Source: a virus | Lineage: Duplodnaviria > Caudoviricetes | Strand: one strand, 5' to 3' | Length of the DNA: 64,000 nt | IMG/VR virus record: IMGVR_UViG_3300020112_002303 | Span: 1 to 64,000 of that record | Part shown: positions 7,358-35,956 of the stretch, piece by piece | Layout of the letters: every line of letters starts with the position of its first letter | Numbering within the stretch: the first letter of the stretch is position 1 | Notes under the pieces: model-generated | Seen by the model: only the letters and a program-made list of their open reading frames with translations | What the model was told of the DNA's origin: nothing | The model's database searches: none | Translations under genes and position numbers: made by a program

Positions 7358-9172
7358 ATGCCAACATTATATCCAAACAACACAGCAGGATACGAAGGAC
7401 AGCGAAGAGGATTTTGCGCATATTATAATGGAAGATCAGCAAATTACGACTGGTTCGGAGCTAAATTTCAGGCTCCGAACAAAGCTATAAAAGTAAAGAA
7501 AATTTTTATACAGGTTGATGGTCGAACCGGTTATGCAAATCCTGCTGTCGCAGTATTTATAAATATGCTGAACGATCAACAAACAATAACAGATTATGTT
7601 TCAGGCGAATTTCAACTTACCGGGAAATCAACAATCAACACTTCCACATTTAAAGTATCCTCTTATGGTAGTGGACTTACGATCAACTGCGACAAAGAGA
7701 TACCTGCCGGTAAAGAATTTGGAGTAGGTATTAGAAGTGCAAGTAACGCGCCTATCGTAATGGCACAATATGGTAATGCAGGATCGAAACCGAAACAAAA
7801 TCATTTCGCCTTATTAAATTCGTCTAACCCTCCAGCATTTAACAGTGTTCAACAATGGTATCAAGTAGTATCCAGCGGTAAGGACGAAGTTCTTTATTGT
7901 TATGTCGAATACGAAGATGCTTATCATCCGGTAACGTCAATTACTCTTAATACCGGAAACTTCGATTTATGGAATGATGCAACTAAAACAATAACAGCAA
8001 CGATTAGCCCTGATAATGCAACAGATAAAAATGTTTCTTGGTCTTCAAGTAATACGAGTGTAGCGACTGTAAACACAAACGGCGTTGTTAGTCCTGTAAG
8101 CCCCGGAACATCAATCATTACATGTCGTGGTGCTGACGGAAAATCTGCATCAGTTATTGCTACTGTTAAACAACATGTAACAAGTATAACTATTACACCA
8201 ACAAAAAATGTAATGTCGACTTATATAGACGATAAGACCGCAAATTACACAGTTACAGTCTTGCCTGAAAATGCCACATATAAAGATTACACATTAAGCA
8301 TGTCTGATATCGGCTTTATAAGCGCCTCAGATGGTGTTATAACGGCTTGTGACGAATTTCCATCAAGTTATCAGCAGGGAAGCAAAACCGTCACTCTGAC
8401 CGTCATAGCGAATGACGGAGGCATAACAGGTTCAGTTTCTAAAACAGGAACCACTTCGATAGAAGTAAGGCAGTATGCAAGTAGTATATCTGTAAATGGA
8501 GGACAAGATAAAACCGTAGATTTTCTTATTAGTCCTCAAAGTTTTGCTGTCGGAGCAGTAGTTTACAGTCCCACTGTTATATACGACAATAATATAGCGT
8601 GGTCCACATCAGACCCCACACTCGTGACAGTCGAAAACAATATGGTTACAGTATCAGGCGCAGGCCCAACAGGTTATGCAGAAGTTGATATTTATGCTGA
8701 TATGCAAGGCGGAATAAATCACACTATTCGGGGTTCATACAAAGTAAAGATTACGCAAAAACCAACGCAAATCAGAGGAACTCTTAAAAGCGGTTTTGAT
8801 AGCGGAGAAAAAGTTGAGTTGTTAGCGGAAATGTATCCTAATAACACATTTGACTGCTCAATAGAAGCAACATCATCAAATAATGCCATTATGAAAATCG
8901 TATCAATAACAGATACTGATCTGAGATACATAAAAAAAGTATTATTAGAAGCTGATGAAATGGGCGATGCAAATCTTGTTATCAAAAGCGCAACAAAACA
9001 GTCTGTTACTAAAAATTTTTCCGTAACCGTAGAACCGCCAATAAAAAGATTATGTGGAGGAGTACTTGCAAAAGTAAAGAAAATGTGGTATTTTAATGGA
9101 GTAGACTTTGAGCGAGCAAAAAAAGCTTATTCATTCGACGGAAAAAATATAAAACAATCTAAAAGGAGATAG
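7358..9172 (+). CDS. virion protein with tandem Ig-like (Big_2) domains
   Basis: VTSITL...ATISPDNATDKNVSWSSSNTSVATV..G repeated in degenerate form. Confidence 0.85.
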   Translation: MPTLYPNNTAGYEGQRRGFCAYYNGRSANYDWFGAKFQAPNKAIKVKKIFIQVDGRTGYANPAVAVFINMLNDQQTITDYVSGEFQLTGKSTINTSTFKVSSYGSGLTINCDKEIPAGKEFGVGIRSASNAPIVMAQYGNAGSKPKQNHFALLNSSNPPAFNSVQQWYQVVSSGKDEVLYCYVEYEDAYHPVTSITLNTGNFDLWNDATKTITATISPDNATDKNVSWSSSNTSVATVNTNGVVSPVSPGTSIITCRGADGKSASVIATVKQHVTSITITPTKNVMSTYIDDKTANYTVTVLPENATYKDYTLSMSDIGFISASDGVITACDEFPSSYQQGSKTVTLTVIANDGGITGSVSKTGTTSIEVRQYASSISVNGGQDKTVDFLISPQSFAVGAVVYSPTVIYDNNIAWSTSDPTLVTVENNMVTVSGAGPTGYAEVDIYADMQGGINHTIRGSYKVKITQKPTQIRGTLKSGFDSGEKVELLAEMYPNNTFDCSIEATSSNNAIMKIVSITDTDLRYIKKVLLEADEMGDANLVIKSATKQSVTKNFSVTVEPPIKRLCGGVLAKVKKMWYFNGVDFERAKKAYSFDGKNIKQSKRR

Positions 9173-9748: not shown

Positions 9749-10690
9749 ATGTCATATTTATTAGAAGAAAAACTTGACGCAGAGAAAATTGCTCGAGCCG
9801 ATAAGCATGGTTATGACAAGAAGATAGATCATAGCACAGGAGCAAATTTTGATGTATTTGCTCTCCCGGCAAAAGGAAAAAGTGGTGCCGGAATTGGCGC
9901 AAGAGTAAGCGAGGCAAAGAGAGAAGTGCCTAAAAAAGTAAATAGTACAATTGAAGGAACAAAAAAGACTTTTGAAGGCGCAAAAAAGACACTTTCAAAA
10001 TATACCCCTAAAAATTATGTTCGTGATGCCGGTTACGACGCATACAATAAAGCCATGAGAGGTTATACTGAAGGAACCGTTAAATTTGACGATATTGCAA
10101 AAGCACAAAAGAAAGGCAGAGTTGTAGGCGGAATCAAATACGGTCTTGGCGCTGCAGGTACTGCTGCAGCTCTTACAGGTGCAACTGTAGGCGGAATCGC
10201 TCTCGCAAAGCATATTAAGAACAAGAAAAAGAAAGAGGAAGAAAAGTCAGCTTTTGATGTTGTTGATGAATTTTACAACGAAAAGTTAGCGTATGATGAT
10301 GCCAGAGTTAATCGTGCAGTGAAAATAAATAAAGATGGTACATATGCCATGAAGAAAAATCCCAGCACGATACTCAATAATGCAAAGTCTAAAGCAAAAG
10401 ATTATATTGGCAAATCAGGCGACAATGCAATGGCAAAAGCCGTAGAAAATTATGCTGCAAATTCCCCCGATATCGATCTCGGCGAATACTTAAATAAGGC
10501 AAAAGCAAGAGGACAAATGGCAGCAAAAGCTAAATTAGGTCTTGGTGCTGTCGGTACCGCTGCAGCTCTTGCAGGTGCAACCGCAGGTGGAATTGCTCTT
10601 ACGAAGCACATTAAGAACAAGAAAAAGAAAGAGGAAGAAAAGTCCGCTTTCGAAATTGTTGATGAAGCATACGAAGAGATTCTTGGTTAA
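9749..10690 (+). CDS. putative head cargo polyprotein with two TM-polyLys modules
   Basis: MSYLLEEKLDAEKIA; EKSAFDVVDEFYNEKLA linker; EKSAFEIVDEAYEE tail. Confidence 0.75.
   Translation: MSYLLEEKLDAEKIARADKHGYDKKIDHSTGANFDVFALPAKGKSGAGIGARVSEAKREVPKKVNSTIEGTKKTFEGAKKTLSKYTPKNYVRDAGYDAYNKAMRGYTEGTVKFDDIAKAQKKGRVVGGIKYGLGAAGTAAALTGATVGGIALAKHIKNKKKKEEEKSAFDVVDEFYNEKLAYDDARVNRAVKINKDGTYAMKKNPSTILNNAKSKAKDYIGKSGDNAMAKAVENYAANSPDIDLGEYLNKAKARGQMAAKAKLGLGAVGTAAALAGATAGGIALTKHIKNKKKKEEEKSAFEIVDEAYEEILG
10142..10666 (+). repeat. 129-bp imperfect direct repeat (10142-10270, 10538-10666)
   Basis: both copies encode GLGAxGTAAALxGATxGGIALxKHIKNKKKKEEEKSAFxxVDE. Confidence 0.9.
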
Positions 10691-10704: not shown

Positions 10705-11130
10705 ATGATTAACAAAGATCCTTCATCAAAAACATCTATATCAAAAGGTAAGGCGCCAATAGTGCGACCCAAACAAGAAATTGGTGGTATCGAAATGCTA
10801 TGGCCGGGACAAAAACAAGTCAGACCGACTGCAACAAAATCGGCGTTTGAAATTATTGATGATTATTTTGAAAAGAAAGCATCAATAGGTGCTGTAGCAG
10901 GAAAAGTCGGCAAAACAGTTCTTAATGGCGCAAAAACTCTCGGCAGAGATGTTGCAAGCGATTTAAGTAATCCATTTACAATGTTAAATGTAGGTTTAAC
11001 AGTAGCTCCTGCAATTTCAGAAGCAGTTGAAAACAGGAGAAAAGTAAAAGAGATGAGAGAAATACGATCTTCTAAAGCACCACAACAGCCTAAGGTACCA
11101 CAACAACCAAAAACACCTCAAATAAATTAA
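10705..11130 (+). CDS. putative head cargo protein
   Basis: internal KSAFEIIDDYFEKKAS linker followed by amphipathic/hydrophobic helix. Confidence 0.65.
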   Translation: MINKDPSSKTSISKGKAPIVRPKQEIGGIEMLWPGQKQVRPTATKSAFEIIDDYFEKKASIGAVAGKVGKTVLNGAKTLGRDVASDLSNPFTMLNVGLTVAPAISEAVENRRKVKEMREIRSSKAPQQPKVPQQPKTPQIN

Positions 11131-11131
11131 T

Positions 11132-11162
11132 AAAAAACACCGGGCAATGCCCGGTGTTTTTT
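11132..11162. terminator. bidirectional terminator
   Basis: A6-CACCGGGCA-a-TGCCCGGTG-T6 between convergent genes. Confidence 0.9.
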
Positions 11163-12370
11163 CATGTAAGTTCAACGAGATATTTTATTGTACACTGATC
11201 TTCTCTATAAATAATAATTTCATCGTTTCTAAGCATAGACCCTTTATGTGCATGCAAACAGTGCGCCAAAGGGGCTGTCTTTTTTAATTTATCATAATTA
11301 AAATTATAATATTTGGAATCAAACTGATACACATCAAAAGGTTTTCCGTAAGCAACATCATAAAGTCCCATTAAAGAAAAATCGGAATTACCATTAGCCC
11401 AATACGAACCTTTGTGGCTTGTATAGCCGAAACTCTTCTGAGCACTGTTAGCATAATATATACCGTAACCAAACATTTTGCCCGTTATAATAGCATTAGG
11501 TTTAAGTAAAAGTCCTGACGAAGCAATGCTCCACCAATTTTCATTTCTTGAGCCGTGCCATAACATTTTGGTATCCGCTATACTGTTATCTTTTACAAAA
11601 GAATCGAATGCACTTTGAGTTTTAATGTTTGTAACTTTCCAAGAATCCTTATATTTATCAGATAAATGGCCAAGCGATTTTTTAATTTTATCAATATCAT
11701 CATCGTTAGTTTCTTCAAAAGTCAAACCGAACATTTCAAGAATAGTTTTATCGAATACGGTATCGCCGGATTGATTTTCGACAGTGACCTTGTTTTTCAC
11801 CATGCCACGCATAACATCAAGAAGATCTTGTTCACGCTTAAATATTTTAGCAAAATCGTCAGGTGTTTTTGCTAAATAATCAGACACTTTTTTCATAGCC
11901 CTTGGAATAACGCTAAATAATTTAGTTAATGTTTTATTAAAATCATTAACAGAGCTGTTTTTACTTGCAGCAAGAACAATAAGGAGTTTGTCTGCCTCAT
12001 CAATCATTTTCTGTGTAACGGCTTCGGACGAAACGGTATAATTCTTTTTTACCGCATCATTTGCAAGACCAATAAGTCTATCAACTATCTTTGAGATGTT
12101 TTGGTTTTCTATTGGTTTGTATTTATTTTCAGAAGATTCAACCTTTACATCCATTAGGTCTGATTGGTCAGCATAACCCTTTTTAACTTTACTGTTGTAT
12201 ATTCGGCACCAATCGGAGCGAGGATAGGTTTTAGTTTGAAAATTGCTATTACCTATCCTTCCGTATTCAACAGTAAATGTATCGCCTTTTGGAATCATTC
12301 GATAGAACTTATTATTATTTGCATCAGCTGTAATCATTACAAGATATTTTGGACAATAGCCGCTATCCAC
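11162..12370 (-). CDS. poly(ADP-ribose) polymerase (WGR + helical + ART catalytic domains)
   Basis: NNKFY..YGRIG WGR-like; LWHGSR, GKMFGYGIYYANSAQKSFGY, NDEIIIY = H-Y-E triad. Confidence 0.9.
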   Translation of the reverse strand: MDSGYCPKYLVMITADANNNKFYRMIPKGDTFTVEYGRIGNSNFQTKTYPRSDWCRIYNSKVKKGYADQSDLMDVKVESSENKYKPIENQNISKIVDRLIGLANDAVKKNYTVSSEAVTQKMIDEADKLLIVLAASKNSSVNDFNKTLTKLFSVIPRAMKKVSDYLAKTPDDFAKIFKREQDLLDVMRGMVKNKVTVENQSGDTVFDKTILEMFGLTFEETNDDDIDKIKKSLGHLSDKYKDSWKVTNIKTQSAFDSFVKDNSIADTKMLWHGSRNENWWSIASSGLLLKPNAIITGKMFGYGIYYANSAQKSFGYTSHKGSYWANGNSDFSLMGLYDVAYGKPFDVYQFDSKYYNFNYDKLKKTAPLAHCLHAHKGSMLRNDEIIIYREDQCTIKYLVELT

Positions 12371-12848
12371 GATCTAATACACCTGCCTCTTGAAGAACAT
12401 GTTTGTCTTTTTCGAGATAACAGACAACAATTTCTAAATCTTTGCCGATATCGGCAAAAAGTCTGTGTAATTCACAGTCAACAAAACCCCATTTCAATCC
12501 GTCTAAACCGCATCCGATAAGCGGAATGCCGATTTTAGAAATATTATGTTTTATAACATAATCCCTGAATTTTTCTAATGAAGCGGAGAAATTTTCTTTT
12601 GTCGGCTTTTCCCAGCACTTATTTTTTGTGACAAGATTGACGATACCGGCAATAACTGCAATATCTCCGGCTCTTGTATCATCTCTAAATTGGCATCGAA
12701 GAATTAAATGTTCTCTCATATTGAATCTTTTGTTGAATTCTACGGCAATTCCTGCCCCTAACGCACAATCTGCCGAAATACAATGAGCAAGAGTATATTT
12801 ATAGCTCAAATCAAATAAATCTTGTTCTGAATAAATAATACTTAACAT
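12363..12848 (-). CDS. macrodomain ADP-ribosylhydrolase, TARG1/Poa1/DarG-like
   Basis: DLF, AHCISADCALGAGIA, NLVTK, PLIGCGLDGL. Confidence 0.9.
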   Translation of the reverse strand: MLSIIYSEQDLFDLSYKYTLAHCISADCALGAGIAVEFNKRFNMREHLILRCQFRDDTRAGDIAVIAGIVNLVTKNKCWEKPTKENFSASLEKFRDYVIKHNISKIGIPLIGCGLDGLKWGFVDCELHRLFADIGKDLEIVVCYLEKDKHVLQEAGVLDRG

Positions 12849-12854
12849 AAAAAA

Positions 12855-14027
12855 CTACCTCACATAAATTATATTTTTCTTTGCTCTTGTAACGGCCGTA
12901 TATAGCCACCGCATTGTCGTTTCTTTACCGACTATTTTTCTCGGAACATCATCGTAAATAATGACATTATCATATTCACTGCCTTGTGCCTTATGAACAG
13001 TTATAGCGTAACCATAATCAAACAAGCACAATTCCTTATCGAATCTGTCTACATAACTACACTCCTGAAACGGATGTCGGCAAACATAAATAATTTCCTC
13101 GTCATCAGTATATTCCGGAGAAAATAAAATCTTAAACGAATAAGGTTTTTCGATTTCGCAAGGCACAGCATTAGATCTTGCAGTACCGATAGTACCGTTA
13201 ATAAGAGGAAGGCCGCCAATATTAATATCCCAATTATTTTTAGTACAAATAAGCTTATCGCCATAAATCGGATAATCACCCTCAAGACTATTGAGAGCTC
13301 TTATTTTTTCGTTCAGCTCTCTTCTCGTGTCATTTTTGTAGCAAAGAACCTGGTCGGCATTTTTAAAAGAAGAATCTTCACATCTTGTTCCGATATCTAA
13401 CTTTATATTTTTTCCGTATCTTTTATTTGGAACATAGCCGTATTCTAATATATCTCTCGACAAAAGAATAATAGGATTGTCTTTTTCCTGTCTTACTATT
13501 TCGTCTAAATGGGCGTCTGAAGAAGTTAAAAGTTTAGGGTCATCTTCTATTGGCGGCAACTGCATTGGATCTCCGATAAGAAGAATTGGTACGCTGAAAG
13601 ACAACAAATCTTTCATAATCTTTGAGCTAATCATAGAAGCCTCGTCAATAACGATAAGTTTAATATTATTATCAATGCTTGTTACCTTGCTGAAAATCAA
13701 GTCAGCTTTAGATTTACCCTGAAGCTTTTTAGTAGGAATAATCTCAAAAGGATCATCCGCTTCTTGTTCAAGTCGATAAATTAACTTGTGGATAGTTACA
13801 GCAGGTATACCCTTAGAATTCAACACCATTGCCGCCTTACCCGTAAAACTTAGGTATACAGTGTTGTTTCGTATACCTAAGTTTTCTACTATTGCAGGAA
13901 CAATAGTAGTTTTACCTGTTCCTGCAAGTCCGGTAAGAACAAAAATTTGTTTTCTATTTTCATCTTTAAACCAATTCGATATGGCTTCGATTGCTTTTTT
14001 CTGTCCTTCATTATATTCAATTTCCAT
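12855..14027 (-). CDS. SF1B helicase, RecD/Dda-like
   Basis: GLAGTGKT, IDEASM, GDPMQLPP, YAITVHKAQGSEY, LYTAVTRA; start chosen from RBS. Confidence 0.93.
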   Translation of the reverse strand: MEIEYNEGQKKAIEAISNWFKDENRKQIFVLTGLAGTGKTTIVPAIVENLGIRNNTVYLSFTGKAAMVLNSKGIPAVTIHKLIYRLEQEADDPFEIIPTKKLQGKSKADLIFSKVTSIDNNIKLIVIDEASMISSKIMKDLLSFSVPILLIGDPMQLPPIEDDPKLLTSSDAHLDEIVRQEKDNPIILLSRDILEYGYVPNKRYGKNIKLDIGTRCEDSSFKNADQVLCYKNDTRRELNEKIRALNSLEGDYPIYGDKLICTKNNWDINIGGLPLINGTIGTARSNAVPCEIEKPYSFKILFSPEYTDDEEIIYVCRHPFQECSYVDRFDKELCLFDYGYAITVHKAQGSEYDNVIIYDDVPRKIVGKETTMRWLYTAVTRAKKNIIYVR

Positions 14028-14421
14028 TTTCATCCCCCTTTTCAAAGTAAACATATTCATCGTCAAATGCTATTTCGGGCAATTTAACCTTATCTATAAT
14101 ATCAGGTTCATAGAAAAGTTCCATATAAAATTTTTCGTTTTCTTCTGACAAATTAACAAGATCGCCCTTAGAATTAAATTCTGATATTAGAAAATCTCCG
14201 GCTATAATTTCCCCATTAAATATTCTGTTTCCCGGAAGGCCTATTTTTTTAGAGTTCCTATTATAAAACAAAAACAGAGAGTTATTATTTCTTGCCTTAT
14301 TAGTTATTGGTTTTTCGGCAAATTCACCATTAACTTCCTTTTGAAAAAATTCAATAAAAGAAGCAGTATCTTTTATTTCTGGATGTTTACCGGGACTAAC
14401 TTTAATTATCTTCGTAATCAT
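14017..14421 (-). CDS. DUF3846-like protein
   Basis: PGKHP..Q..VNG..GLPGNR..IIAGDF pattern. Confidence 0.6.
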   Translation of the reverse strand: MITKIIKVSPGKHPEIKDTASFIEFFQKEVNGEFAEKPITNKARNNNSLFLFYNRNSKKIGLPGNRIFNGEIIAGDFLISEFNSKGDLVNLSEENEKFYMELFYEPDIIDKVKLPEIAFDDEYVYFEKGDENGN

Positions 14422-14614
14422 CACCTTCTTCATCGTGATAAATAATATTTGAATGTCTTCCGAGTTCTTTTTCGGACGGGAATGGAGATAAAATAACATC
14501 GCCATTAGAAATAAAAACCTTAAATATAGTATTTTCGTCTACATTCAAACTATTTCTTATTTGGACAGGAATAACAACTCTTCCTGCCTTATCTATACCA
14601 ACAACTTTACTCAT
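14402..14614 (-). CDS. AbrB/MazE/SpoVT-family DNA-binding protein
   Basis: IDKAGRVVIPVQIRNSL. Confidence 0.85.
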   Translation of the reverse strand: MSKVVGIDKAGRVVIPVQIRNSLNVDENTIFKVFISNGDVILSPFPSEKELGRHSNIIYHDEEGDDYEDN

Positions 14615-15149
14615 TTTCTTTTTCCTTTCTTTTAAAATATTTGCTTTCATCAAAAGCGACAATTTCGATTTCCGATACCTTATCACCGATTCTTCTTCCT
14701 GAAAAAACTCTATCAGTATTACCAAGATCAGAATAAAAAATTAGATATTTACCATTTCTGATATATATTCTTTCTTTTTCTCTGACGGTTTTACAAGCAA
14801 AATAATCTGACCATGTGTCTTCCGGGAACATTTCTTCAAAACCTTCAGGTAATTCGTCACGATTTTTATAGTATATCGGTGACCCGACATAAATTAAACC
14901 GGAATCAGAATGAATAGTAATAGACTCCTTTTCAACTCCGTATAATCTGATTTTTTCTGATTTAACTAAAGATACTTTCCAAATACTTGACTTACTATCT
15001 TCTGATAATCTTTTTTCTACGATAACACTATCTATGTCGCAATCTTTTATTAGCAAATATTTGTCATCATAAAAAGGATCGCAGGCAATGATAGGACCTT
15101 TTAAATTTATTTTGTAGGTTATTTTAGGTGGATGAGAGATAATAATCAT
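14607..15149 (-). CDS. hypothetical protein
   Basis: AAGGA RBS, first gene of minus-strand operon. Confidence 0.65.
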   Translation of the reverse strand: MIIISHPPKITYKINLKGPIIACDPFYDDKYLLIKDCDIDSVIVEKRLSEDSKSSIWKVSLVKSEKIRLYGVEKESITIHSDSGLIYVGSPIYYKNRDELPEGFEEMFPEDTWSDYFACKTVREKERIYIRNGKYLIFYSDLGNTDRVFSGRRIGDKVSEIEIVAFDESKYFKRKEKENE

Positions 15150-18720: not shown

Positions 18721-20349
18721 TTGCACTTGAAACAGAATACGATTAAAATAAAACCCTCCGAGTTTGCGGAGTTGGTTTTCAATCTTGATGGTGCACCATT
18801 TAGACTTGGACCTCGTAGATATCTGTTACCTATTTATGATGCCGATATAGAAGAGGGTATAATAATGTCAGGCAGACAGGTAGAAAAATCTACCACAAAT
18901 GCAACTAAAATGGGGACGCATACATTAATGCAAAAAAACTTTAAAGCATTATATGTTGCTCCTCAAAATGCTCAAGTTAAAGAATTTTCTCGTGAACGAA
19001 TCGGAAAATTCTATGATTTTAGTCAAAATGACATTGTAAATAAAGAATACAGAAACACTAGGTATGATTTAAACAATGTTTCCATGAAGCAGTTTTCTAA
19101 AGTTAATTCAATAAATTATTTTAGACATTGTTACGAAATGGGCGATAACATTCGTGGTATAACTGCCAACGGTATATGGTTTGACGAAGTTCAAGACATA
19201 AATGTTGATGCTATCCCGGTAGTAAAAGAATGCCAAGCTCACGCTCTCGATACTGGTTCGAGAACGAGGGTAACATGGTATACTGGAACGCCGAAAACAT
19301 TCAGCAACACAATACAACAATATTACGAAAGAAGTACTCAAAATGAATGGGTAATAAAATGTGAACATTGTGGAACACAGCAAATCTTAGGCGTAAAAAA
19401 TCTTACACCAACAAAATTCATCTGCAGAAAATGCGGCATGGAATTAACAAAAGAAATGATAGCAAATGGCAGATGGTATAGTTTAGCGCCTAATAATGCC
19501 ATTCAGGGATTTAGAATTTCTCAGATGATGGTTCCATGGTCTCAACCAAAAGATTTATGGGCAAAATATGAAACTTATTCTAAGGGCAAGTTTTATAACG
19601 AGGTTCTTGGAAGAAGCTACGAAGACGCTCAAAAACCATTAAATATGCCGTTGCTATTATCTATATGCGATAATGACTTTATTCTTTCAGAAGCACTACC
19701 CCCGGAATACAACAACAGGAAGACCTATATGGGTGTAGACTGGGGTACAGGAGGAAAGTCATATACGATAGCAGAGGTTTATGGTGAAGATCAGTATGGT
19801 AATTTAAGATTGTTATTCGCCAAAAAATTTGCCATTGGAGATGAAACCGAGCCGGATTACCAGGTTCAATATATATCACAGCTTATGCATATATTTAGGG
19901 TAAATAAATGCGTTCTCGACTGGGGTTTCGGTTTTGTTCAAAATAAAGATCTTGTAAGAATGTTCGGAAAAAGAATGGAAATCTGTTATTATTCAGCATC
20001 TCAAAATAAAGCAAGAAAATATAACGTAGATAAGGGATTTTGGACTGTAAATAGAACAGAAATGATATCAACCTACTTAAAAGATATAAAAGAGCACAGA
20101 ATTATTTGGCCGGGAAGAAGCAAAGACCAAATAGACTTTATGTTCGATCATCATTTGGCAGAATTGTCAGAATACAGAAAGTCATTAAATGGAAAATCGG
20201 AAGAATTATTTTATTTTCATTCCGAATCCACTCCAGATGACGCACTTCATGCCGGGGTTTATGCAAAATTAGCATGTATACTTGATAGGGAAAGTACAAA
20301 TAATTCATATAGTTTTTCCGGTGTTTACATGCCAAATGAAGATTTTTAA
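18721..20349 (+). CDS. terL: terminase large subunit (gpA-like)
   Basis: GRQVEKST Walker A, WFDE Walker B, TGTP, CxxC..CxxC, GVDWG and DDALHA nuclease motifs. Confidence 0.9.
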   Translation: MHLKQNTIKIKPSEFAELVFNLDGAPFRLGPRRYLLPIYDADIEEGIIMSGRQVEKSTTNATKMGTHTLMQKNFKALYVAPQNAQVKEFSRERIGKFYDFSQNDIVNKEYRNTRYDLNNVSMKQFSKVNSINYFRHCYEMGDNIRGITANGIWFDEVQDINVDAIPVVKECQAHALDTGSRTRVTWYTGTPKTFSNTIQQYYERSTQNEWVIKCEHCGTQQILGVKNLTPTKFICRKCGMELTKEMIANGRWYSLAPNNAIQGFRISQMMVPWSQPKDLWAKYETYSKGKFYNEVLGRSYEDAQKPLNMPLLLSICDNDFILSEALPPEYNNRKTYMGVDWGTGGKSYTIAEVYGEDQYGNLRLLFAKKFAIGDETEPDYQVQYISQLMHIFRVNKCVLDWGFGFVQNKDLVRMFGKRMEICYYSASQNKARKYNVDKGFWTVNRTEMISTYLKDIKEHRIIWPGRSKDQIDFMFDHHLAELSEYRKSLNGKSEELFYFHSESTPDDALHAGVYAKLACILDRESTNNSYSFSGVYMPNEDF

Positions 20350-27676: not shown

Positions 27677-27922
27677 ATGGACCAAGAAAAACAATATTAT
27701 TGTGAGACTCTCGTCTTCCCTGGGGACGAAAAAAATCTTGCGTATATTTACAACAATTTTTGCGAGGACATATATAAAGAAATGAAATCCCCAAGCAAAA
27801 CATTGTTAATACTTACAATAATGTTTAAATGTTTTCCTGAAGAATACGAAGAATATTTAAAAGAATGTCCCCATAAAACAACAGATGAAAAGGTAGGAAA
27901 TAATGATGACTTTGAATTCTAA
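27677..27922 (+). CDS. hypothetical protein coupled to RNAP gene
   Basis: AGGTGA RBS, overlaps RNAP start. Confidence 0.6.
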   Translation: MDQEKQYYCETLVFPGDEKNLAYIYNNFCEDIYKEMKSPSKTLLILTIMFKCFPEEYEEYLKECPHKTTDEKVGNNDDFEF

Positions 27923-30900
27923 AACAACAGAATTAAAGAATAGAATACTCGACTTCTTTAAAAAACAACCGGTAATAAAATCTGACAGCGGATATTCTGC
28001 AAAAATATCCGACATTAAAATAGATATACCGAAGGGTGCAACAGATTTATCGGAGCAAATGAAAATAAAATATAAGTCAGAAAGTCTTGAGGGTAAGGTT
28101 AAGGGCGTTTTAACGATTTATGATCCGTCAGGAAGCGTACTGAGTAAAAGCGCATCGATGATGTTGTTAAAATTTCCGTTATTTACCGATAGAAGCACAA
28201 TAATATCGAATGGTTCGGAAAAGTTTATTCAAAATCAAATCAGAACTAAGCCAGGCGTATACACAACAAAAGGTAACTCTGCCGGTGTTGCAAGAACGGA
28301 AATTAAATTTCCAAGAATATCCGGCGGAACAAGAACAATGCCTTCTTTTAATATAGTTGCTAATTCTGATAAAAAAACATTTGTTGTTGAAATTAAGGGT
28401 TCTGGGAAAACACTAAACGTCAATGTTGTTAACTTCATGAGAGAATTAGGGTTTTCCGACCAAGAAATTGCAAGCAGTCTCGGTAACGGTTCTTATAGTG
28501 ATTATCTTTTTAAAAGAGCAAATTCTAATTACAAATCTATTTTCGACATTCATCGTGTTATTGTGGGTGGAACACAAAACAATTTAACGCCCGATGCTGC
28601 AAGGTCTCAAGTAATAGATTTCTTGGAAAACAATTCTTCGTTTGAATCCGGTCAATCTGTTGTTCAAAAAAATCTTGGCGTATCAGCAAGTAAGGCAAAG
28701 TTTTTGTCGAGAGATGTTATCTCTAAAGCAGTAGAAAAAACTATGGCAGTAGAGATGGGAGATAAGCCCGAAGATGAAAGAGATGACATTAGGAATGCAG
28801 ATATTCTTTCGGATATAGATTTAATCATCGAAAATATATCCGGTGATTACAAAGAATTCGAAAAAAATGCGAAAGCAGAGCTTGATAATTATAGAAATTT
28901 AAATCAAAATTCTGCCAAGAGCTTCAAATCGATTCTTAATTTAGGAAATAATCTTAACGGATTTTTAACACAGTCATCTGTTGTTCATACTGTTTCAGAG
29001 GGGTCTAATCCTGTAGCAGTAGAATCTAACCAAAGAGAAATCACTCAATTTGGTGATAAGTATGCTCCCACAACACTCAAATCGGGCAATAATAACGATG
29101 ATATTGGTACGGCGGGAAAAAGAGTTCTGACACTATCAGAGTTCAATAAAATAGACCCTGTTGAAGTTCCGGAAAACGCTAAATTAGGATTAGTCCAACA
29201 TTTAGCACAAGGTGCCAAAGTAAAAAACAAAACTGTTTACATTGATGTTTACAAAGTTTCTGGTAAATATGTAAAAACTGATTCAAGTAATAAAAAGACT
29301 ATCTCTGTTGACGATGAGTATAATAGCAAAATAGCATTTTATGACAAAAAATATATCACTGTTGACAGTAAAAAAGGCGAACTTCGTTTTAATGGTCCAA
29401 GAGCACTTGCAAGATATAAAGGGAAAGTTGACGAAATGCTCGTTAGCGATATTCAGTATATCGATGTAAACGCATCAAATACTCTTGGAACAACTGCTAA
29501 TTTGGTTCCTTTTGTGTCGCACGATGATGGTGCAAGAATAATAATGGCTACATCTCAGCAAAAACAAGCCGTTGTATTAAAGAATAGAGAAGAACCGGTT
29601 GTTTCTATGTTGTATGATCCTAAAACAAAAGAAACTTATGAAGAAAAAATGGGTAAAGATTATGGAAAGCCCGTAATTTGTGATGTTAACGGAAAAGTAA
29701 CATCTATATCCGATAGTAAAATTAAAGTTAAAGATTCTGCAGGAAAAGTGTATATCTACCAATACTACAACCATTACCCTTTTAATGGTTCATATATAAA
29801 TAACGAATTAAAAGTGTCTGTTGGCGACGAAGTAAAGAAAGGACAAATGTTAGCTGAAGGATGGCAAACAAAAAACGGCAAACTTGCTATCGGATTAAAT
29901 GCGAATGTAATGTTCCTTCCGTATAAAGGATATAATTACGAAGACGGCATAGTAATATCTCAAAGTTTGGCTAAAAGAATGTCATCAGAAGAAACAACAG
30001 AATACGAAATTAATATTCCGTCCGACTGCAAGGGTGGTAGAGGTAGCGGTATATTAAAAGAGGTATCTATTTATTCTTCGGACCCCGATTTACATTTACT
30101 TGATAGAGACGGTATAGTTAAAGAAGGTACTTATGTAAAATCAGGAAGTCTTATAGCCGCTTTCCTTTCTCCTGTTGACACATCTAACGCTTCTGTTTTT
30201 GATCTCGTTAAATCTATGGATAAAAACAGCAAATATGTAGAAAAATTAAAACGAATAGACAGCAACAGTTACATCGAAGGTAAAATTGTTCGAATCGTCG
30301 TTTTAAATAATCCTGACAAAATAACTAAACAGAGAATAGTGTTTACTATTTCAACCGATAAGCCACTTAAAGTGGGAGATAAGTTATCGGGTCGTCACGG
30401 AAACAAAGGTACTGTTACAAAAATTCTTCCTGATGAACAAATGCCGTTTTCGGAAGATAATGTTAGAGCAGACGTTTTACTTTCCCCTCTTGGCGTTCCT
30501 TCCCGTAAAAATGTCGGTCAGGTACTTGAAGTAGGCGCAGGTTTAATTAAACGCAAAACCGGTAAAGACAGAGTTATTGAAAACTTTGACTCGTCAGAAA
30601 AAGACAAACTTCTTAAAGATATGGAAGCAGCAGGTCTTGGTGACGGAAGAATGAAAGTTTATGTTCCGGAAGTTGATAAAAACGGAAAAATTGTAAATGT
30701 TCCCACTGAGGCAAAAGTCGATGTAGGCAGCATGTACATGATTAAACTTAAACACAAGGTTGACGATAAGGCTCAGGCAAGAAGTAACCTCGAAACATCC
30801 CTTTCTCAAAAAAATTATATGCCAAGCAAAAGAGTTGGTATGGCTCAAGGCGAAAAAAGAAACCCTCAAGCTCTCGGAGAAATGGAATTCAAATCTCTAA

Positions 30901-33900
30901 TAGGTCACGGCGCCGTCTGGAATGCGTTAGAATCGTCCACATTGAAGTCTGATGGCGGAGGCAATATAACGAATAGGTTAGCAATATTTAACGCCTTAAA
31001 GGGGCAAAAAATCAATCCTGACGAGCTTGATTTTGCAGCCACACCAGAAAGCTTTAAATTATTTGCTGACAATCTTAAGGCATTAGGTCTTGTTGTAAAG
31101 CCACAATACAATGGGAAAGATGTAAAATCGTTTGATGACGCTTATGATAGCCTTGCTCTTGTTCCACTAAAGACAAAAGATTTTGTTAAACTTGTAGGCA
31201 AGGACAAAAAAGTAACATCATCGAATATTTATAATGCTAAAAATATTAAGAGTGGAAATGCTAAGGGACTCGAGGGTGGTTTATATGATCCTAAGATTTT
31301 TGGCGATAATTCTGAACCCGACAACAATAGAAATAAATGGGGCTATATAGAATTATCTTCCCCTGTTGCAAATCCTATTTTCGCTGACAGAACAGACAGT
31401 AGCAATATCTATGCTCTTGTTACCAACATGAAAGCATCTGATATTAAGGCTATTTCAGAAGGCAAAAAGGTAATTGTTGAATCGCCTGAAACTTTTGAAG
31501 GATTTAAAAAGATGAACGCTGAAGAGCGCAAGGAAAATATCAAAAAATCCCTTGAAGCTATGTCCGAATTAGGAGTAAAAGCAGGAGATCTTGTAGATCC
31601 TAAGATTCTCGAAAAGTATTTAGAAAAAGGTGTAATAATTCCGTTCTCTGCAGGAGGAAAAGCAATATATTCAGCTCTTGAAAAAGTTGATATAAAGAAG
31701 GAATTAAAGAAAGCACAAAAATCACTTGACTCTGCAAAAGGAGCAAACATAGACAAAAACTATAAACGGGTTAAAGCATTGTCTAATTTAGTTAAAAATA
31801 ATTTTAAGGCAACAGACTTAATGCTGACAGCAATTCCTGTAACACCGACACATATTCGTCCTGTTATAGTTAACGAAAAAGATAATACCTTTATCAATAG
31901 CGATTTAAATGTTCTTTATTCAAATCTTATTGTAGCAAATAAATATTCTGTTCCAAACGCAAGCAATACCGATAGTATTATTCTTCCTCCAAGTGAAACG
32001 GCAAGAAGATCGGCAAATTTGTATAACTCGGTTGCACAGTTAATGGGTAAAAAGAAAGCATTAACACTAAAGGGAAAAACCTCTGATGTAAAAGGCATTC
32101 TCGATACTCTTGGCGGAAAGGGAGGCGTTGTACGAAATAATCTTCTAAGAAAAAGAATTGATTTTTCAGGAAGATCTGTTATCGGCGTAGACCCCAACCT
32201 AACTATTGACGAAGTTGCATTACCTATGGACTTAGCTAAATATGTATATAAACCTTTCTTAGTAAAGGAACTTGTTCGTTCTGGAGCAGCAGGAAATGAC
32301 CGTCAAGCACTTAAGATGATAGATAAGTCTGACCCAGAAATAAAGAAAGCATTAACAAATATAGCTAATGATAGACCTATCCTTATTGGTAGACAGCCAA
32401 GTTTGCATAAATATGGATTACAAGCATTTAAACCGGTTATAAAAGATACTGAGGATGGATCAGTCGTAAGAAGCATTCATTTGAATCCGTTGGTAACAAA
32501 AGGGTTTAATGCCGACTTCGACGGAGACACAATGTATATAACAACACCTATCACTGATAAGGCAAAAGAAGAAGCCAAAAAACTTATGATGCCAAGTCAA
32601 ACAATGATGAATCCTACAGACGGAAAAATGGTTGTAGGTATATCGGCAGAAATGCTTGCAGGACTATACTTAATATCTGTTGGCAAGCCAAAAGGAAAAG
32701 TTAAAACATATAGCACATATAAATCCCTATATGATGATTATTTTTCCGGTAAAGTTAATTCTGACAGTGCGGTTAAAACACCGTTGTCACCGAACACTAT
32801 TTCCGCAGGTCAAGCACTTATTAACTGGTGTATTCCAGATAAAGTTAAATCAAAGAATCGTCAATTTACAAGTATTTGGGGAAAAAGTGAAATTACCGGA
32901 CTGATGACGAATCTGTACAGAATAGGCGAAGCAAGCGAATGGAAAACAATATCTATGACGGAGGTCGCAGAGGTTCTTGATAAATTAAAAGATTTAGGAT
33001 TTAAGGCATCTACAAGAGCCGGATTATCTATTTCCACATCCGATTTTATGGGTGTTAGCGGAATCGAAGATATGTATAACAGACGCCTTAAAGAGACAAA
33101 GAAGACATACGGAAATATGGACGCAGCTCAAATAAAAGCATGGCAGTCTGTTGAAAGCGATATAGAAAAACAAATAGCGGAAGGTAAATTACTTTCGAAG
33201 GATAATAATCTTAATATTATGATGCGTTCGGGAGCCAAAGGTAACAAAGGTCAAATTAAGAAGATGGTTGCGACTGTTGGTGTATTTGCTGACATAAAAA
33301 ATAATTTAAGTCAGCCTGTCAAATCTTCTTTCTTCAATGGTTTGTCACCACAAGAATATTTCAATCAAGGTAACGAAGCAAGAAAGGGTATTTTTGATAG
33401 GTCTGTTTCTGTAGTAGCGCCCGGAACATTATCAAGAGAGATGTGGCATGCCGCACAAGATGTTATTATTTCTGAAAAAGATTGCAAAACAAACGAATAC
33501 ATCACTATGTTAAAGACCGACCCCAATATAAGAGGCAGATATTGTGCCGCTAATGTTAGATCTTCTAAGAAAAAGATTATTTGCAAGAAAGGTCAAATCA
33601 TAGATGATGCAGTAATTAATGCAATGGCTAAAGACGATAGTATCGAAGGCGTAAAAGTCAGATCTCCGATGAGATGTAAAACTGTAAACGGATGTTGTGT
33701 AAAATGTTATGGTTGTTTGCCGGGCACATTAACACCTGTAACCGTAGGAACACCTGTAGGAACTCTTGCAACACAAGCACTTGGTGAACCTGTTACTCAG
33801 ATGACAATGAAAACATTCCATACCGGAGGTGCAGATTCGAGCGCAACATTGGGATTACAAAGAGTTCAAGACATATTAAACCTTTCCGACATCAAGAACA

Positions 33901-34865
33901 ATAAAGCGGTTCTGGCTGTCGAAAACGGAGTAGTATCGAAAATTGACGAATCCACCAATAAAACAATTGTAACAATCGGCTCTAAAAAATACACAATTAA
34001 ATCTAATTCTGACGGCTCGAATAAGGTATTAAGAGTTAAGATAGGTGATGTTGTACGAAAAGGCGATATGATTACTCTTGGAACACCGTCAGATATATCT
34101 AAATCGCTATCGAACAAAAAAGACAATGCACAACTTACCTTCGCTAATCCAAGACAAATGTTTGATATGAAAAAACAGGAACTTGGAGGAAAAGAAGCAG
34201 TTAAGGATATTCAAGACTATTTGTCAAAGAGCATGGAATATGCTTTCGGCAAAACGGTAGGTAATGATGCCATGAATTCTAAGCATACTGAAATAATGGT
34301 TGGAAAAATGACATCAAATGTAAAAATTCTTGATCCGGGCAATTCAGATTATTTAAAAGGTCAAGTCGTCAATCGTAACGAAGCAGAAAAATATAATCAA
34401 TCCATTAAAAACGGAGCCGGTAAAAAGAAACTCGGAATAACCAATGTAAACGGGATATTAAATCATCCGTCCGCAAAAACTTATAAGTTTAAGAACCAAG
34501 TTGTTGTTAAGGCCGGACAACCGATAACAAAAACGGATATTTCTAAATTAAAATCATTAAGGGTTAAAAATATAGAAGTATTACCTAAGCCGGTTGTTTA
34601 TGACGAAATGATAATGTCAAAGAACACTGTTCCTTATGCTGGACATGATAACTGGCTAAGCAATGTTGGTTACGAAAACATCAATTCCGGTCTTGCTTCT
34701 GGGGCAGCGTTTGGTCAGGTAGACAAAATTGATAGTCCGAAAACAAGACTTATGACGGGAAAAATCATGAACGTTGGCGAAGGATTTAATGCTGATAAGT
34801 CGACCGTTTCAGGATTCGGAAGAAAAATGTACAATTTCTTCGCTAAACCCCGAAAGAAAAAGTAA
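27903..34865 (+). CDS. phage DNA-directed RNA polymerase, fused beta+beta' single chain
   Basis: beta: NGSEK, HDDGAR, GYNYED, GDKLSGRHGNKG, GVPSR, KLKHKVDDK, GEME; beta': DFSGRSVI, RQPSLH, NADFDGD, SGAKG, GEPVTQMTMKTFHTGG. Confidence 0.95.
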   Translation: MMTLNSKTTELKNRILDFFKKQPVIKSDSGYSAKISDIKIDIPKGATDLSEQMKIKYKSESLEGKVKGVLTIYDPSGSVLSKSASMMLLKFPLFTDRSTIISNGSEKFIQNQIRTKPGVYTTKGNSAGVARTEIKFPRISGGTRTMPSFNIVANSDKKTFVVEIKGSGKTLNVNVVNFMRELGFSDQEIASSLGNGSYSDYLFKRANSNYKSIFDIHRVIVGGTQNNLTPDAARSQVIDFLENNSSFESGQSVVQKNLGVSASKAKFLSRDVISKAVEKTMAVEMGDKPEDERDDIRNADILSDIDLIIENISGDYKEFEKNAKAELDNYRNLNQNSAKSFKSILNLGNNLNGFLTQSSVVHTVSEGSNPVAVESNQREITQFGDKYAPTTLKSGNNNDDIGTAGKRVLTLSEFNKIDPVEVPENAKLGLVQHLAQGAKVKNKTVYIDVYKVSGKYVKTDSSNKKTISVDDEYNSKIAFYDKKYITVDSKKGELRFNGPRALARYKGKVDEMLVSDIQYIDVNASNTLGTTANLVPFVSHDDGARIIMATSQQKQAVVLKNREEPVVSMLYDPKTKETYEEKMGKDYGKPVICDVNGKVTSISDSKIKVKDSAGKVYIYQYYNHYPFNGSYINNELKVSVGDEVKKGQMLAEGWQTKNGKLAIGLNANVMFLPYKGYNYEDGIVISQSLAKRMSSEETTEYEINIPSDCKGGRGSGILKEVSIYSSDPDLHLLDRDGIVKEGTYVKSGSLIAAFLSPVDTSNASVFDLVKSMDKNSKYVEKLKRIDSNSYIEGKIVRIVVLNNPDKITKQRIVFTISTDKPLKVGDKLSGRHGNKGTVTKILPDEQMPFSEDNVRADVLLSPLGVPSRKNVGQVLEVGAGLIKRKTGKDRVIENFDSSEKDKLLKDMEAAGLGDGRMKVYVPEVDKNGKIVNVPTEAKVDVGSMYMIKLKHKVDDKAQARSNLETSLSQKNYMPSKRVGMAQGEKRNPQALGEMEFKSLIGHGAVWNALESSTLKSDGGGNITNRLAIFNALKGQKINPDELDFAATPESFKLFADNLKALGLVVKPQYNGKDVKSFDDAYDSLALVPLKTKDFVKLVGKDKKVTSSNIYNAKNIKSGNAKGLEGGLYDPKIFGDNSEPDNNRNKWGYIELSSPVANPIFADRTDSSNIYALVTNMKASDIKAISEGKKVIVESPETFEGFKKMNAEERKENIKKSLEAMSELGVKAGDLVDPKILEKYLEKGVIIPFSAGGKAIYSALEKVDIKKELKKAQKSLDSAKGANIDKNYKRVKALSNLVKNNFKATDLMLTAIPVTPTHIRPVIVNEKDNTFINSDLNVLYSNLIVANKYSVPNASNTDSIILPPSETARRSANLYNSVAQLMGKKKALTLKGKTSDVKGILDTLGGKGGVVRNNLLRKRIDFSGRSVIGVDPNLTIDEVALPMDLAKYVYKPFLVKELVRSGAAGNDRQALKMIDKSDPEIKKALTNIANDRPILIGRQPSLHKYGLQAFKPVIKDTEDGSVVRSIHLNPLVTKGFNADFDGDTMYITTPITDKAKEEAKKLMMPSQTMMNPTDGKMVVGISAEMLAGLYLISVGKPKGKVKTYSTYKSLYDDYFSGKVNSDSAVKTPLSPNTISAGQALINWCIPDKVKSKNRQFTSIWGKSEITGLMTNLYRIGEASEWKTISMTEVAEVLDKLKDLGFKASTRAGLSISTSDFMGVSGIEDMYNRRLKETKKTYGNMDAAQIKAWQSVESDIEKQIAEGKLLSKDNNLNIMMRSGAKGNKGQIKKMVATVGVFADIKNNLSQPVKSSFFNGLSPQEYFNQGNEARKGIFDRSVSVVAPGTLSREMWHAAQDVIISEKDCKTNEYITMLKTDPNIRGRYCAANVRSSKKKIICKKGQIIDDAVINAMAKDDSIEGVKVRSPMRCKTVNGCCVKCYGCLPGTLTPVTVGTPVGTLATQALGEPVTQMTMKTFHTGGADSSATLGLQRVQDILNLSDIKNNKAVLAVENGVVSKIDESTNKTIVTIGSKKYTIKSNSDGSNKVLRVKIGDVVRKGDMITLGTPSDISKSLSNKKDNAQLTFANPRQMFDMKKQELGGKEAVKDIQDYLSKSMEYAFGKTVGNDAMNSKHTEIMVGKMTSNVKILDPGNSDYLKGQVVNRNEAEKYNQSIKNGAGKKKLGITNVNGILNHPSAKTYKFKNQVVVKAGQPITKTDISKLKSLRVKNIEVLPKPVVYDEMIMSKNTVPYAGHDNWLSNVGYENINSGLASGAAFGQVDKIDSPKTRLMTGKIMNVGEGFNADKSTVSGFGRKMYNFFAKPRKKK

Positions 34866-35280: not shown

Positions 35281-35312
35281 AAAAAAATCACGGGGGCAAC
35301 CCCGTGGTTTTT
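35281..35312. terminator. bidirectional terminator
   Basis: A7-TCACGGGG-GCAA-CCCCGTGG-T tract. Confidence 0.9.
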
Positions 35313-35686
35313 TATTTTTTGGTATATTCGCCTTGTATTATACTGTTATCATTAGATGACAACCATTTTGCCACTATATGTCTATGACAAAAATCGTCAC
35401 TTTTCTCATAGCAAACAAGAGCAATATCATTGTCGTTACTTAGCAATTTTAAATCGTTGATTACATCTCCGTATTTTAAATTAGAAAGTACCTGTTTTTG
35501 GAAGCTTTCTTCAAACATATTTTTATTGCCATTTGTTTTATATAAAGACAATATATTTGCTGTTGGGGAAAGTTTTTTATAAACTAATCCCTTATAAAAT
35601 TTAGGTGTATATAATGCGATAGATATAGGAATAATATTTTCTGGAAGTTTTCTTAATTTTGCATAATAGCTGGTATATATTTTCAT
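35312..35686 (-). CDS. DUF488-family protein
   Basis: IYTSY..., LSP, ALVCYEK..FCHRH. Confidence 0.8.
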   Translation of the reverse strand: MKIYTSYYAKLRKLPENIIPISIALYTPKFYKGLVYKKLSPTANILSLYKTNGNKNMFEESFQKQVLSNLKYGDVINDLKLLSNDNDIALVCYEKSDDFCHRHIVAKWLSSNDNSIIQGEYTKK

Positions 35687-35697
35687 ACTAAATAAAA

Positions 35698-35721
35698 AGA
35701 CGGGGAGCTAACTCCCCGTCT
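35698..35721 (-). terminator. intrinsic terminator
   Basis: AGACGGGGAG/CTCCCCGTCT stem with T tract on minus strand. Confidence 0.7.
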
Positions 35722-35875
35722 CCTTTCTATATTTTCTTTCGTTTTCTCTGCCGGTAATATATGCCTGGATTTTTATTTGGGCATCATGTTCATTATCAGC
35801 GGAAAACAATAGTTTTTTATCTTCAAAAATCTCAATTCCATTTTCTGTTTTTCTGAATTCAAATTTATTACACAT
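35708..35875 (-). CDS. small hypothetical protein, 55 aa
   Basis: GGTGA RBS; MCNKFEFRKTENGIEIFEDKKLLF... Confidence 0.55.
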   Translation of the reverse strand: MCNKFEFRKTENGIEIFEDKKLLFSADNEHDAQIKIQAYITGRENERKYRKETGS

Positions 35876-35956
35876 AGTTATCACCAACCTTTCCTTGAAC
35901 TATGTACAAAATGAATTCATAGTATCACCACGCTTTTTATCGTTATGATTTATATT

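Follow-up and report, generated by a model that had tools for sequence, protein, structure and literature searches.

A translationally coupled PARP and TARG1-type macrodomain pair in a Caudoviricetes phage and its relatives

Why would a phage encode, in two overlapping genes, a predicted enzyme for attaching ADP-ribose and a predicted enzyme for removing it? The pair that raises this question, a PARP and a TARG1-type macrodomain protein, lies on the minus strand of a large, uncultured Caudoviricetes phage (IMG/VR record IMGVR_UViG_3300020112_002303), a linear contig of 102,257 bases that CheckV estimates to be 67% complete; the window analyzed here comprises positions 1 to 64,000 of that record. 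An initial annotation, made from the letters of the window, had placed three genes at 11162-14027, encoding a helicase, a macrodomain protein and a PARP, and this gene content is confirmed on the minus strand, with 14027 as the best helicase ATG. Comparison with related loci shows that the macrodomain and PARP genes are a two-gene, translationally coupled writer-eraser module. The TAG stop of the first and the GTG start of the second share an overlap that had been given as 8 bp and is read from the sequence as 8 nucleotides (nt), 12363-12370. The two genes are:

11162 to 12370, minus strand: PARP, 402 residues from a GTG start, with a WGR domain at about residues 8-63, a helical domain at about 85-215 and an ADP-ribosyltransferase (ART) domain at about 216-401.
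12363 to 12848, minus strand: TARG1-type macrodomain protein, 161 residues, with K75 (in LVTK), D116 (in GCGLD) and the loop GAGIA.

The PARP is recognized by the Pfam models for the catalytic domain (PF00644, 76.6 bits against a gathering cut-off of 26.7, residues 229-401) and for the WGR domain (PF05406, 29.1 bits against a cut-off of 22), the WGR motif itself being Y36-G37-R38, and it matches PHROG 23333 (E 2e-54). Its H-G-S, G-I-Y, K-S and Y stretch aligns with solved PARP1 and PARP2 structures, and the glutamate of an 'NDE' motif falls onto the catalytic glutamate. The triad residues H272, Y305 and E384, together with K312, Y316, G37 and R38, are invariant in all 46 aligned phage PARPs. 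An AlphaFold model (pLDDT 87.5, pTM 0.78) consists of an N-terminal domain rich in beta structure, a bundle of helices (residues 90 to 198) and an ART fold, and its top Foldseek matches are the WGR-CAT chains of PARP-1 and PARP-2 on DNA breaks. By VIA-align, model residues 1-402 superpose onto PARP-1 548-1006 (4dqy_C) with a Z of 26.5 over 366 residues (root-mean-square deviation 4.1), at an identity to PARP1 of about 20% across the structural alignment; residues 85-402 superpose onto the catalytic fragment of PARP1 (662-1006, helical domain plus ART) with a Z of about 25 over about 295 residues. The Pfam model for the helical domain, PARP_reg (PF02877), finds no sequence match in the window PARP even at E up to 1. 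The WGR-helical-ART architecture with an intact H-Y-E triad, as the initial annotation had described it, nevertheless holds, because the model aligns end to end with PARP-1. Bacterial PARP clade 1, as described by Garcia-Saura et al. (PMC5966428), likewise combines a helical domain unseen by Pfam with a WGR motif that reads YGR.

For the macrodomain protein, the best solved relative is human TARG1/OARD1 (4j5r_A; E 5.4e-23, 84.7 bits, residues 4-140), and the AHCIS-DC, GAGIA, LxTK and IGCGLD motifs of the two proteins line up, with LVTK aligned to LITK and GCGLDG to GCGLDR of TARG1. In this alignment K75 and D116 are the equivalents of the TARG1 Lys/Asp dyad, numbered Lys84/Asp125 in full-length human TARG1, and the retention of both residues, claimed earlier from the motifs, is upheld. 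The Lys84/Asp125 dyad is named in PMC8120803. No Pfam family matches at E of 0.01 or below, PF01661 reaching 16.1 bits against a cut-off of 22; this miss has no bearing on membership in the TARG1 branch, because that branch is divergent from the PF01661 model. Human TARG1 and FmTARG1 of Fusobacterium mortiferum are the closest known systems, and the phage protein shows the GAGIA and GCGLD loops, the AHCIS motif and the Lys/Asp dyad. It has 161 residues against 146 in the TARG1 chain and ends in a C-terminal tail of some 15 residues. It adjoins a PARP, whereas the context reported for FmTARG1-type genes is an Imm51 neighborhood of polymorphic-toxin type (PMC6397177).

The lysine equivalent to K75 is kept in all 30 TARG1-like representatives, and the aspartate is kept in 22 of the 30 and replaced by glutamate in one. 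A sub-branch whose macrodomain open reading frames (ORFs) abut the PARP gene upstream (L033, L043, L049, L052, L053, L069 and L081, standing for at least 26 loci) keeps the lysine, has N or G in place of the aspartate and has lost the AHC motif; its loops read, for example, KVGLP in place of GAGIA and CTGKN in place of GCGLD. These proteins may be readers, or may act by another mechanism.

Relatives of the PARP were collected from IMG/VR by two scans, one with the single protein (20 loci) and one with an alignment of 11 sequences (236 contigs, of which the best 80 of 236 were kept), which together gave 88 viral loci in 45 clusters at 90% PARP identity. The macrodomain gene stands directly upstream of the PARP gene, within 20 nt or overlapping it, in 28 of the 45 clusters (69 of the 88 loci). 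It lies upstream across a gap of 200-1000 nt in 6 clusters (7 loci) and elsewhere within 6 kb in one cluster (one locus), and a macrodomain is present within 6 kb of the PARP in 35 of 45 clusters; none was found in 9 clusters (10 loci), and one cluster (one locus) was not evaluable. The co-conservation that the initial annotation had left to a gene-neighborhood survey is borne out by these counts. In a quick maximum-likelihood tree, the window PARP falls inside a supported clade (SH-aLRT 96) of 41 PARPs, 33 of which are accompanied by a TARG1-like macrodomain, three by a PF01661-type macrodomain and five by no macrodomain. The nine tree rows outside this clade are all without a macrodomain; they are L020, L022, L024, L025 and five Bacteroidota and Rhodothermota rows. 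The branch of the window PARP is long, and its exact place inside the clade is tentative.

The position of the eraser can be filled by another macrodomain lineage. In two loci (L017 and L019) the upstream slot is occupied by a second macrodomain lineage that matches PF01661 and lacks the TARG1 lysine and aspartate, and in L044 a PF01661-type macrodomain, also without the two residues, lies downstream of the PARP. In our reading, a non-orthologous but functionally equivalent gene has displaced the TARG1 type in L017 and L019.

Several arrangements around the pair were seen in single loci or small groups. A GIY-YIG/NUMOD3 homing endonuclease gene lies between the macrodomain and PARP genes in L006 (5211-5891), parting by about 800 nt a pair that otherwise abuts, and genes of the same family hold that position in L067, L083 and L088. 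A protein of about 100 residues with no Pfam family is encoded directly 3' of the PARP gene in seven clusters (L017:7237-7539, L018:7202-7507, L019:7239-7538, L042:1989-2297, L044, L046 and L085), which are exactly the subclade with a PF01661-type macrodomain or none; this protein may be an accessory factor. In L047 (4077-5324 and 5995-7215, both with WGR and PARP domains) and L173 (4309-5526 and 7060-8487), two PARP paralogues lie on the same strand about 1.5 kb or less apart, with no macrodomain nearby.

Genome contigs were drawn from GTDB species representatives, in which 114 stretches matched and the best 80 of 114 were kept, a choice that favors close relatives. Among the 19 closest of these loci (L097-L115, 49-58% identity), which are mostly labeled Clostridia or other Bacillota, with one Treponema and one Absconditabacterales, the macrodomain gene immediately precedes the PARP gene in 11, and one is present within 6 kb in 15. 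Of the remaining 61 loci, most of them from Bacteroidota and 36-42% identical, a single one has a macrodomain, as a weak and distal match. The labels of the closest genome contigs suggest a possible Bacillota host for the phage. PARP-bearing contigs of 73-425 kb also occur in metagenome-assembled genomes (MAGs) labeled Nanoarchaeia, Pacearchaeota and Absconditabacterales (L152, L154 and L104); they are probably phage contigs mis-binned into small-genome MAGs.

The setting of the pair in related phages bears on what it acts upon. Neighbor families were clustered for 44 cluster representatives and the window, and the most frequent are the DNA polymerase III (Pol III) alpha subunit (21 loci), NrdD (12 loci), ATP-dependent DNA ligase (12 loci), PD-(D/E)XK nuclease (11 loci), ERCC4 nuclease (11 loci) and NAD-dependent LigA with a BRCT domain (5 loci); DnaG primase, an ExoX-like nuclease and ThyX also recur, and NrdDG is among the genes around the pair. 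A hidden Markov model (HMM) search placed an ATP-dependent ligase no more than 6 kb from the PARP in 13 of 45 clusters. Five further clusters have a NAD-dependent LigA at such a distance, giving 18 of 45 with any ligase, and the gene order ligase-macrodomain-PARP is seen in L017, L019, L066, L072, L086 and L103. In the 44 other representatives the genes run co-directional with the replication genes and occupy no moron position. In these relatives the pair belongs to a replication and repair module.

Phage PARPs that are already annotated belong to the same family, namely gp031 of Cellulophaga phage phi4:1, ORF414 of Xanthomonas phage XacN1 and gp111 of Klebsiella phage vB_KpM_FBKp34 (25-31% identity over 98% of the length), and all fall in PHROG 23333 territory like the window PARP. 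They are distant in sequence, come from phages of Bacteroidota or Proteobacteria and, unlike the window, have no macrodomain abutting the PARP (0 of 4 loci, L001-L004). In phi4:1 a CCA-adding/poly(A) polymerase-like gene is followed by the PARP, one gene and a DNA ligase; in FBKp34 a phrog_335 macrodomain lies 2.4 kb upstream of the PARP; and in LR756500, an uncultured phage of 462 kb, the genes downstream of the PARP include an RNA ligase and a kinase-like ATPase.

We give an even chance to the reading that the pair is an ADP-ribosylation module that is gated by breaks, resets itself and works on intermediates of phage DNA. The PARP has the minimal DNA-damage-sensor layout of PARP2, PARP3 and bacterial PARPs, with a WGR domain, an autoinhibitory helical domain and an ART domain carrying H-Y-E. 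Docking of the WGR domain on a nick or DNA end would destabilize the helical domain and let NAD+ reach the active site, and the enzyme would then modify itself, nearby proteins at Glu/Asp and possibly phosphorylated DNA termini. The TARG1-type protein, translated from the same message just ahead of the PARP, would strip the ADP-ribose through its Lys/Asp dyad, and this removal would reset the system, limiting the loss of NAD+ and allowing the break to be processed. Given the replication and repair context of the relatives, the pair would act on intermediates that arise when the phage replicates, recombines and ligates its own DNA.

The reading is adopted because of the mechanism of PARP1-3, the linkage specificity of TARG1 and the reversal of a DNA-end product. 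PARPs without an HPF1-like factor modify Glu/Asp. This linkage is exactly the one that TARG1-type enzymes remove (PMC6397177). The bacterial enzymes HaPARP and CdPARP are reported to automodify with activated DNA (PMC5966428), TARG1 and FmTARG1 to remove mono-ADP-ribose and to release poly(ADP-ribose) en bloc from PARP1 (PMC6397177), and PARP1-3 to ADP-ribosylate phosphorylated DNA ends, the PARP3 product being reversed by TARG1 (PMC8385414). The same source gives mono-ADP-ribose as the product of human PARP3, and since that enzyme makes mono-ADP-ribose, an H-Y-E triad is necessary and insufficient for poly(ADP-ribose). Of the reversible (poly)ADP-ribosylation circuit put forward in the initial annotation, a conserved writer-eraser unit with intact catalytic signatures stands, while the 'poly' is not established.

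A more specific form of this reading, which we think unlikely, is a cycle of capping and uncapping, in which the PARP would place ADP-ribose on 5'- or 3'-phosphates at nicks and ends of replicating phage DNA, shielding them from host exonucleases or marking them for repair, and the TARG1-type enzyme would uncap them for sealing by the ligase that is encoded beside the pair in many relatives. A still bolder version would have the modification read by the BRCT domain of the phage LigA next door. ADP-ribosylation of DNA ends is so far known mainly in vitro, according to PMC8385414; if true, the cycle would be the first physiological role for PARP-type modification of DNA ends.

In the window, the pair is embedded in a tightly packed minus-strand block of six ORFs (11162-15149), of which the PARP, macrodomain and helicase genes are the last three, amid structural genes on the plus strand; an Ig-domain protein (7358-9172) and the terminase (18721-20349) flank the block, with portal, capsid and sheath genes beyond. 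The remaining features of the block are:

11132 to 11162: terminator-like hairpin directly after the PARP stop, with a 14-bp stem, 7 G-C pairs and a T-run.
12855 to 14027, minus strand: superfamily 1B (SF1B) Dda/RecD-like helicase, 390 residues from the ATG at 14027, with an ORF open to a TTG at 14066 (403 residues).
14017 to 14505, minus strand: DUF3846 protein, Pfam match at residues 32-131, with an internal ATG as the probable true start.
14402 to 14725, minus strand: small DNA-binding protein of AbrB/SpoVT-MazE type, match at ORF residues 43-81.
14607 to 15149, minus strand: first gene of the block, 180 residues, with no Pfam or PHROG family.

The hairpin closes the minus-strand operon and faces a convergent plus-strand gene (10705-11130). 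Ten terminator-like sites were observed against 3.3 +/- 1.6 in shuffled sequences, and this one is the strongest. Promoter prediction gave no usable signal in the window, with 24 sigma-70-like sites against 23.2 +/- 5.1 in shuffles, and the phage has an RNA polymerase-like gene of its own. In this phage the pair stands together with a DUF3846 gene and a gene for a Dda/RecD-like helicase instead of with replication genes, in a block closed by a strong terminator, and the window has just the macrodomain and PARP in common with the neighborhoods of its relatives. As a lead only, the ESM Atlas fold of the 180-residue protein lies near DUF4241 (feature score 0.89, structural TM 0.75), a family met in immunity proteins of polymorphic toxin systems.

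The helicase had been counted as part of the circuit, and in this respect the initial annotation was not sustained. Its best start, the ATG at 14027, lies 6 nt downstream of AGGGGG, with an 11-nt overlap between it and the stop of the DUF3846 gene upstream, and the helicase stop is separated from the macrodomain ATG by 6 nt. The protein carries AAA_30 (PF13604, 90 bits) and UvrD_C_2 (PF13538, 56.3 bits) domains and falls with PHROG 325, 'Dda-like helicase' (E 4.6e-92); RecD2 and Dda are among its distant relatives of solved structure, and PADLOC gives generic SF1 matches. The score against the RecD2 equivalog TIGR01448 (128.6 bits) is far below the cut-off of 500, and the protein is therefore taken as a Dda-like phage helicase rather than as RecD2 proper. 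The family is very common, with matches in 1175 phage records. As a candidate conserved partner, the helicase was rejected: the window-helicase HMM found it in 0 of 88 viral loci (E of 1e-5 or below) and 0 of 80 genome loci (E of 1e-4 or below), and tblastn in 0 of 24 loci. It is a neighbor particular to this phage, outside the conserved module, although one that suits the DNA theme.

Elsewhere in the record, one plus-strand ORF of 2320 residues (27903-34865) has matches to several PHROGs that carry the annotation RNA polymerase beta subunit, and its product looks like a fused multisubunit-type phage RNA polymerase. A minus-strand cluster at 35312-37085 encodes a DUF488-N3a protein, a TSCPD-domain protein and a protein with the N-terminal domain of a dATP/dGTP diphosphohydrolase (PF18909), a possible sign of nucleotide-pool editing or of a modified base; the PF18909 domain is found near the PARP in L024 as well. 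A 313-residue plus-strand protein (9749-10690) without a family match contains two near-identical internal segments, each a Gly/Ala-rich hydrophobic stretch followed by KHIKNKKKKEEEKSAF. Beyond the window, Pol III alpha is encoded in two ORFs about 290 nt apart (L027:15683-19619, record positions 97683-101619), one of 431 residues with the PHP domain and the start of the alpha domain and the next of 782 residues; the interruption may reflect an intron, a frameshift or a true division of the gene.

A number of observations weigh against a break-gated module. For this phage clade we infer the activity itself, its dependence on DNA, the choice between mono- and poly(ADP-ribose) and the targets. 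The phage's replication genes lie at about 79-102 kb of the record, away from the pair, whose moron-like block is inverted relative to the structural genes around it, and no DNA ligase (PF01068, PF01653) was found in the 102-kb, 67%-complete record. Seven of the 30 TARG1-like representatives lack the aspartate and both ligand loops. The nine macrodomain-less clusters show that an adjacent eraser is not obligatory; a search for a hidden macrodomain in them, with filters off and E up to 10, gave none below E 0.01 within 6 kb of the PARP, and Pfam scans covered L018, L020, L023 (for the L022 cluster), L024 and L025 and, in part only, L042, L046, L047 and L085. The ligase association is partly a by-product of location in a replication module. 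The survey itself is biased to one clade, because only the best 80 of 236 matches were kept. Its neighbors were sought with HMMs built from the window and early matches (1 to 6 seed sequences each), its ORFs were called by a crude longest-ORF rule, and its loci are mutually related, such that the counts are not independent events.

The alternatives give the two proteins other targets. One that we consider improbable is host takeover, in which the PARP would modify host proteins such as RNA polymerase or translation factors in the manner of Alt, ModA and ModB of T4, and the macrodomain would protect phage proteins or recycle the enzyme. T4-type ARTs are R-S-E enzymes without WGR or helical domains, which counts against the comparison. 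The phage PARP has kept both domains, which gate activity on DNA breaks in every characterized case within the sources cited here, and the context of its relatives is one of replication and repair, not of early or host-shutoff genes. What speaks for such a role is its proposal for the PARPs of jumbo phages (PMC7824862), the position of the window block apart from the replication genes and beside an AbrB-type regulator, and the giant RNA polymerase-like protein, with which the phage may be able to shut down host transcription. The T4 enzymes resemble the window PARP as phage-encoded ADP-ribosyltransferases dependent on NAD+ (a property predicted for the latter) and differ in their ART clade, in the absence of a WGR domain, a helical domain and a paired eraser, and in their host-protein targets (PMC8120803, PMC7824862).

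Counter-defense, to which we assign a still lower probability, would have the macrodomain reverse ADP-ribosylation of phage DNA or RNA by the host (through DarT-like or other defense ARTs), with the PARP independent or secondary. The macrodomain does match DarG models, across the macrodomain part only (PADLOC E 2.3e-13; NCBIfam NF048014, 38.3 bits, profile positions 26-145 of 338), and 22 phage records without a PARP match carry a stand-alone macrodomain of the TARG1-like or phrog_335 kind. The NCBIfam score is far from the cut-off of 250, however, the C-terminal half of DarG is missing from the 161-residue protein, and the DarG macrodomain 5m3i, the next family after TARG1, scores 25 bits against 84.7 for TARG1. 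The conserved, overlapping coupling with the PARP and the refilling of the slot by another macrodomain lineage are taken to argue that the main substrate of the macrodomain is the PARP product. As in DarTG, a macrodomain with the TARG1-like catalytic lysine is encoded beside an ADP-ribosyltransferase for which DNA is a plausible substrate; unlike DarTG, the writer is a PARP rather than a DarT. The DarT model PF14487 finds no match in the phage record, nor in the control genomes. An equally slight chance goes to a toxin and antidote used in exclusion, by analogy with DarTG: the PARP would be a NAD+-consuming or DNA-modifying toxin set off by foreign DNA ends, for example those of a superinfecting phage, and the macrodomain would be its antidote. 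The inverted, terminator-bounded block among structural genes, its AbrB/MazE-fold protein and DUF4241-like (immunity-like) lead, and the antidote-before-toxin order with overlap, which recalls toxin-antitoxin operons, would all fit. No PADLOC defense-system model fits the PARP, the sole match being a weak one to ZorA (E 0.0015), the co-directional setting of the 44 other representatives is not that of morons, and nine clusters with a PARP and no nearby macrodomain are hard to square with an obligate antidote. Among the three roles offered in the initial annotation, break signaling and repair is the sole one with contextual support, from the replication and repair module and its recurrent ligases; host takeover and action against DarT are unsupported here.

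Set beside known systems, the pair resembles human PARP1, PARP2 and PARP3 and the PARP/PARG systems of the bacteria Herpetosiphon aurantiacus and Clostridioides difficile CD160 in its WGR-helical-ART layout, its H-Y-E triad and K-S...Y active-site residues, and the presence of writer and eraser within one genome. It differs from them in being phage-borne, in having no zinc fingers or BRCT domains, in its eraser, a TARG1-type macrodomain instead of a PARG, and in the placing of writer and eraser in one overlapping bicistron. Neither bacterial PARG (PF10021) nor ARH (PF03747) is matched in the 102-kb, 67%-complete record.

Parts of this picture are already in print: PARP genes of phages Aeh1 and phi4:1 and TARG1-like genes in viruses (Perina 2014, PMC4245714), the PARP of XacN1 (Iyer 2021, PMC7824862), and bacterial PARP clades including Clostridiales (PMC5966428). 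Bacterial and phage PARPs have been cataloged since 2014 with their biological role left open (PMC4245714, PMC8120803). In full-text literature other than subscription journals and supplements, our search found no phage macrodomain-PARP operon or PARP-ligase link, and no report of slot refilling by a second macrodomain lineage or of a recurring ligase or replication context; the supplementary accession tables of the bacterial PARP (PMC5966428) and TARG1 (PMC6397177) studies might include members of this clade.

If the pair were merely a host-modifying ART with a housekeeping eraser, it would be a modest addition to the known phage ARTs. What the comparison adds is that in one large phage-PARP clade the gene forms a fixed bicistron with that of a TARG1-type eraser (236 IMG/VR contigs carry a relative of the PARP), that the eraser slot has been refilled by another macrodomain lineage in one subclade, and that replication and repair genes surround the pair, an ATP- or NAD-dependent ligase repeatedly adjoining it. 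With two proteins and no histones, the module offers a minimal PARP system that probably has DNA intermediates as its natural substrate. It makes testable both a physiological role for DNA-end ADP-ribosylation and the question of whether break-sensing ADP-ribosylation is older than eukaryotes as a DNA-repair device.

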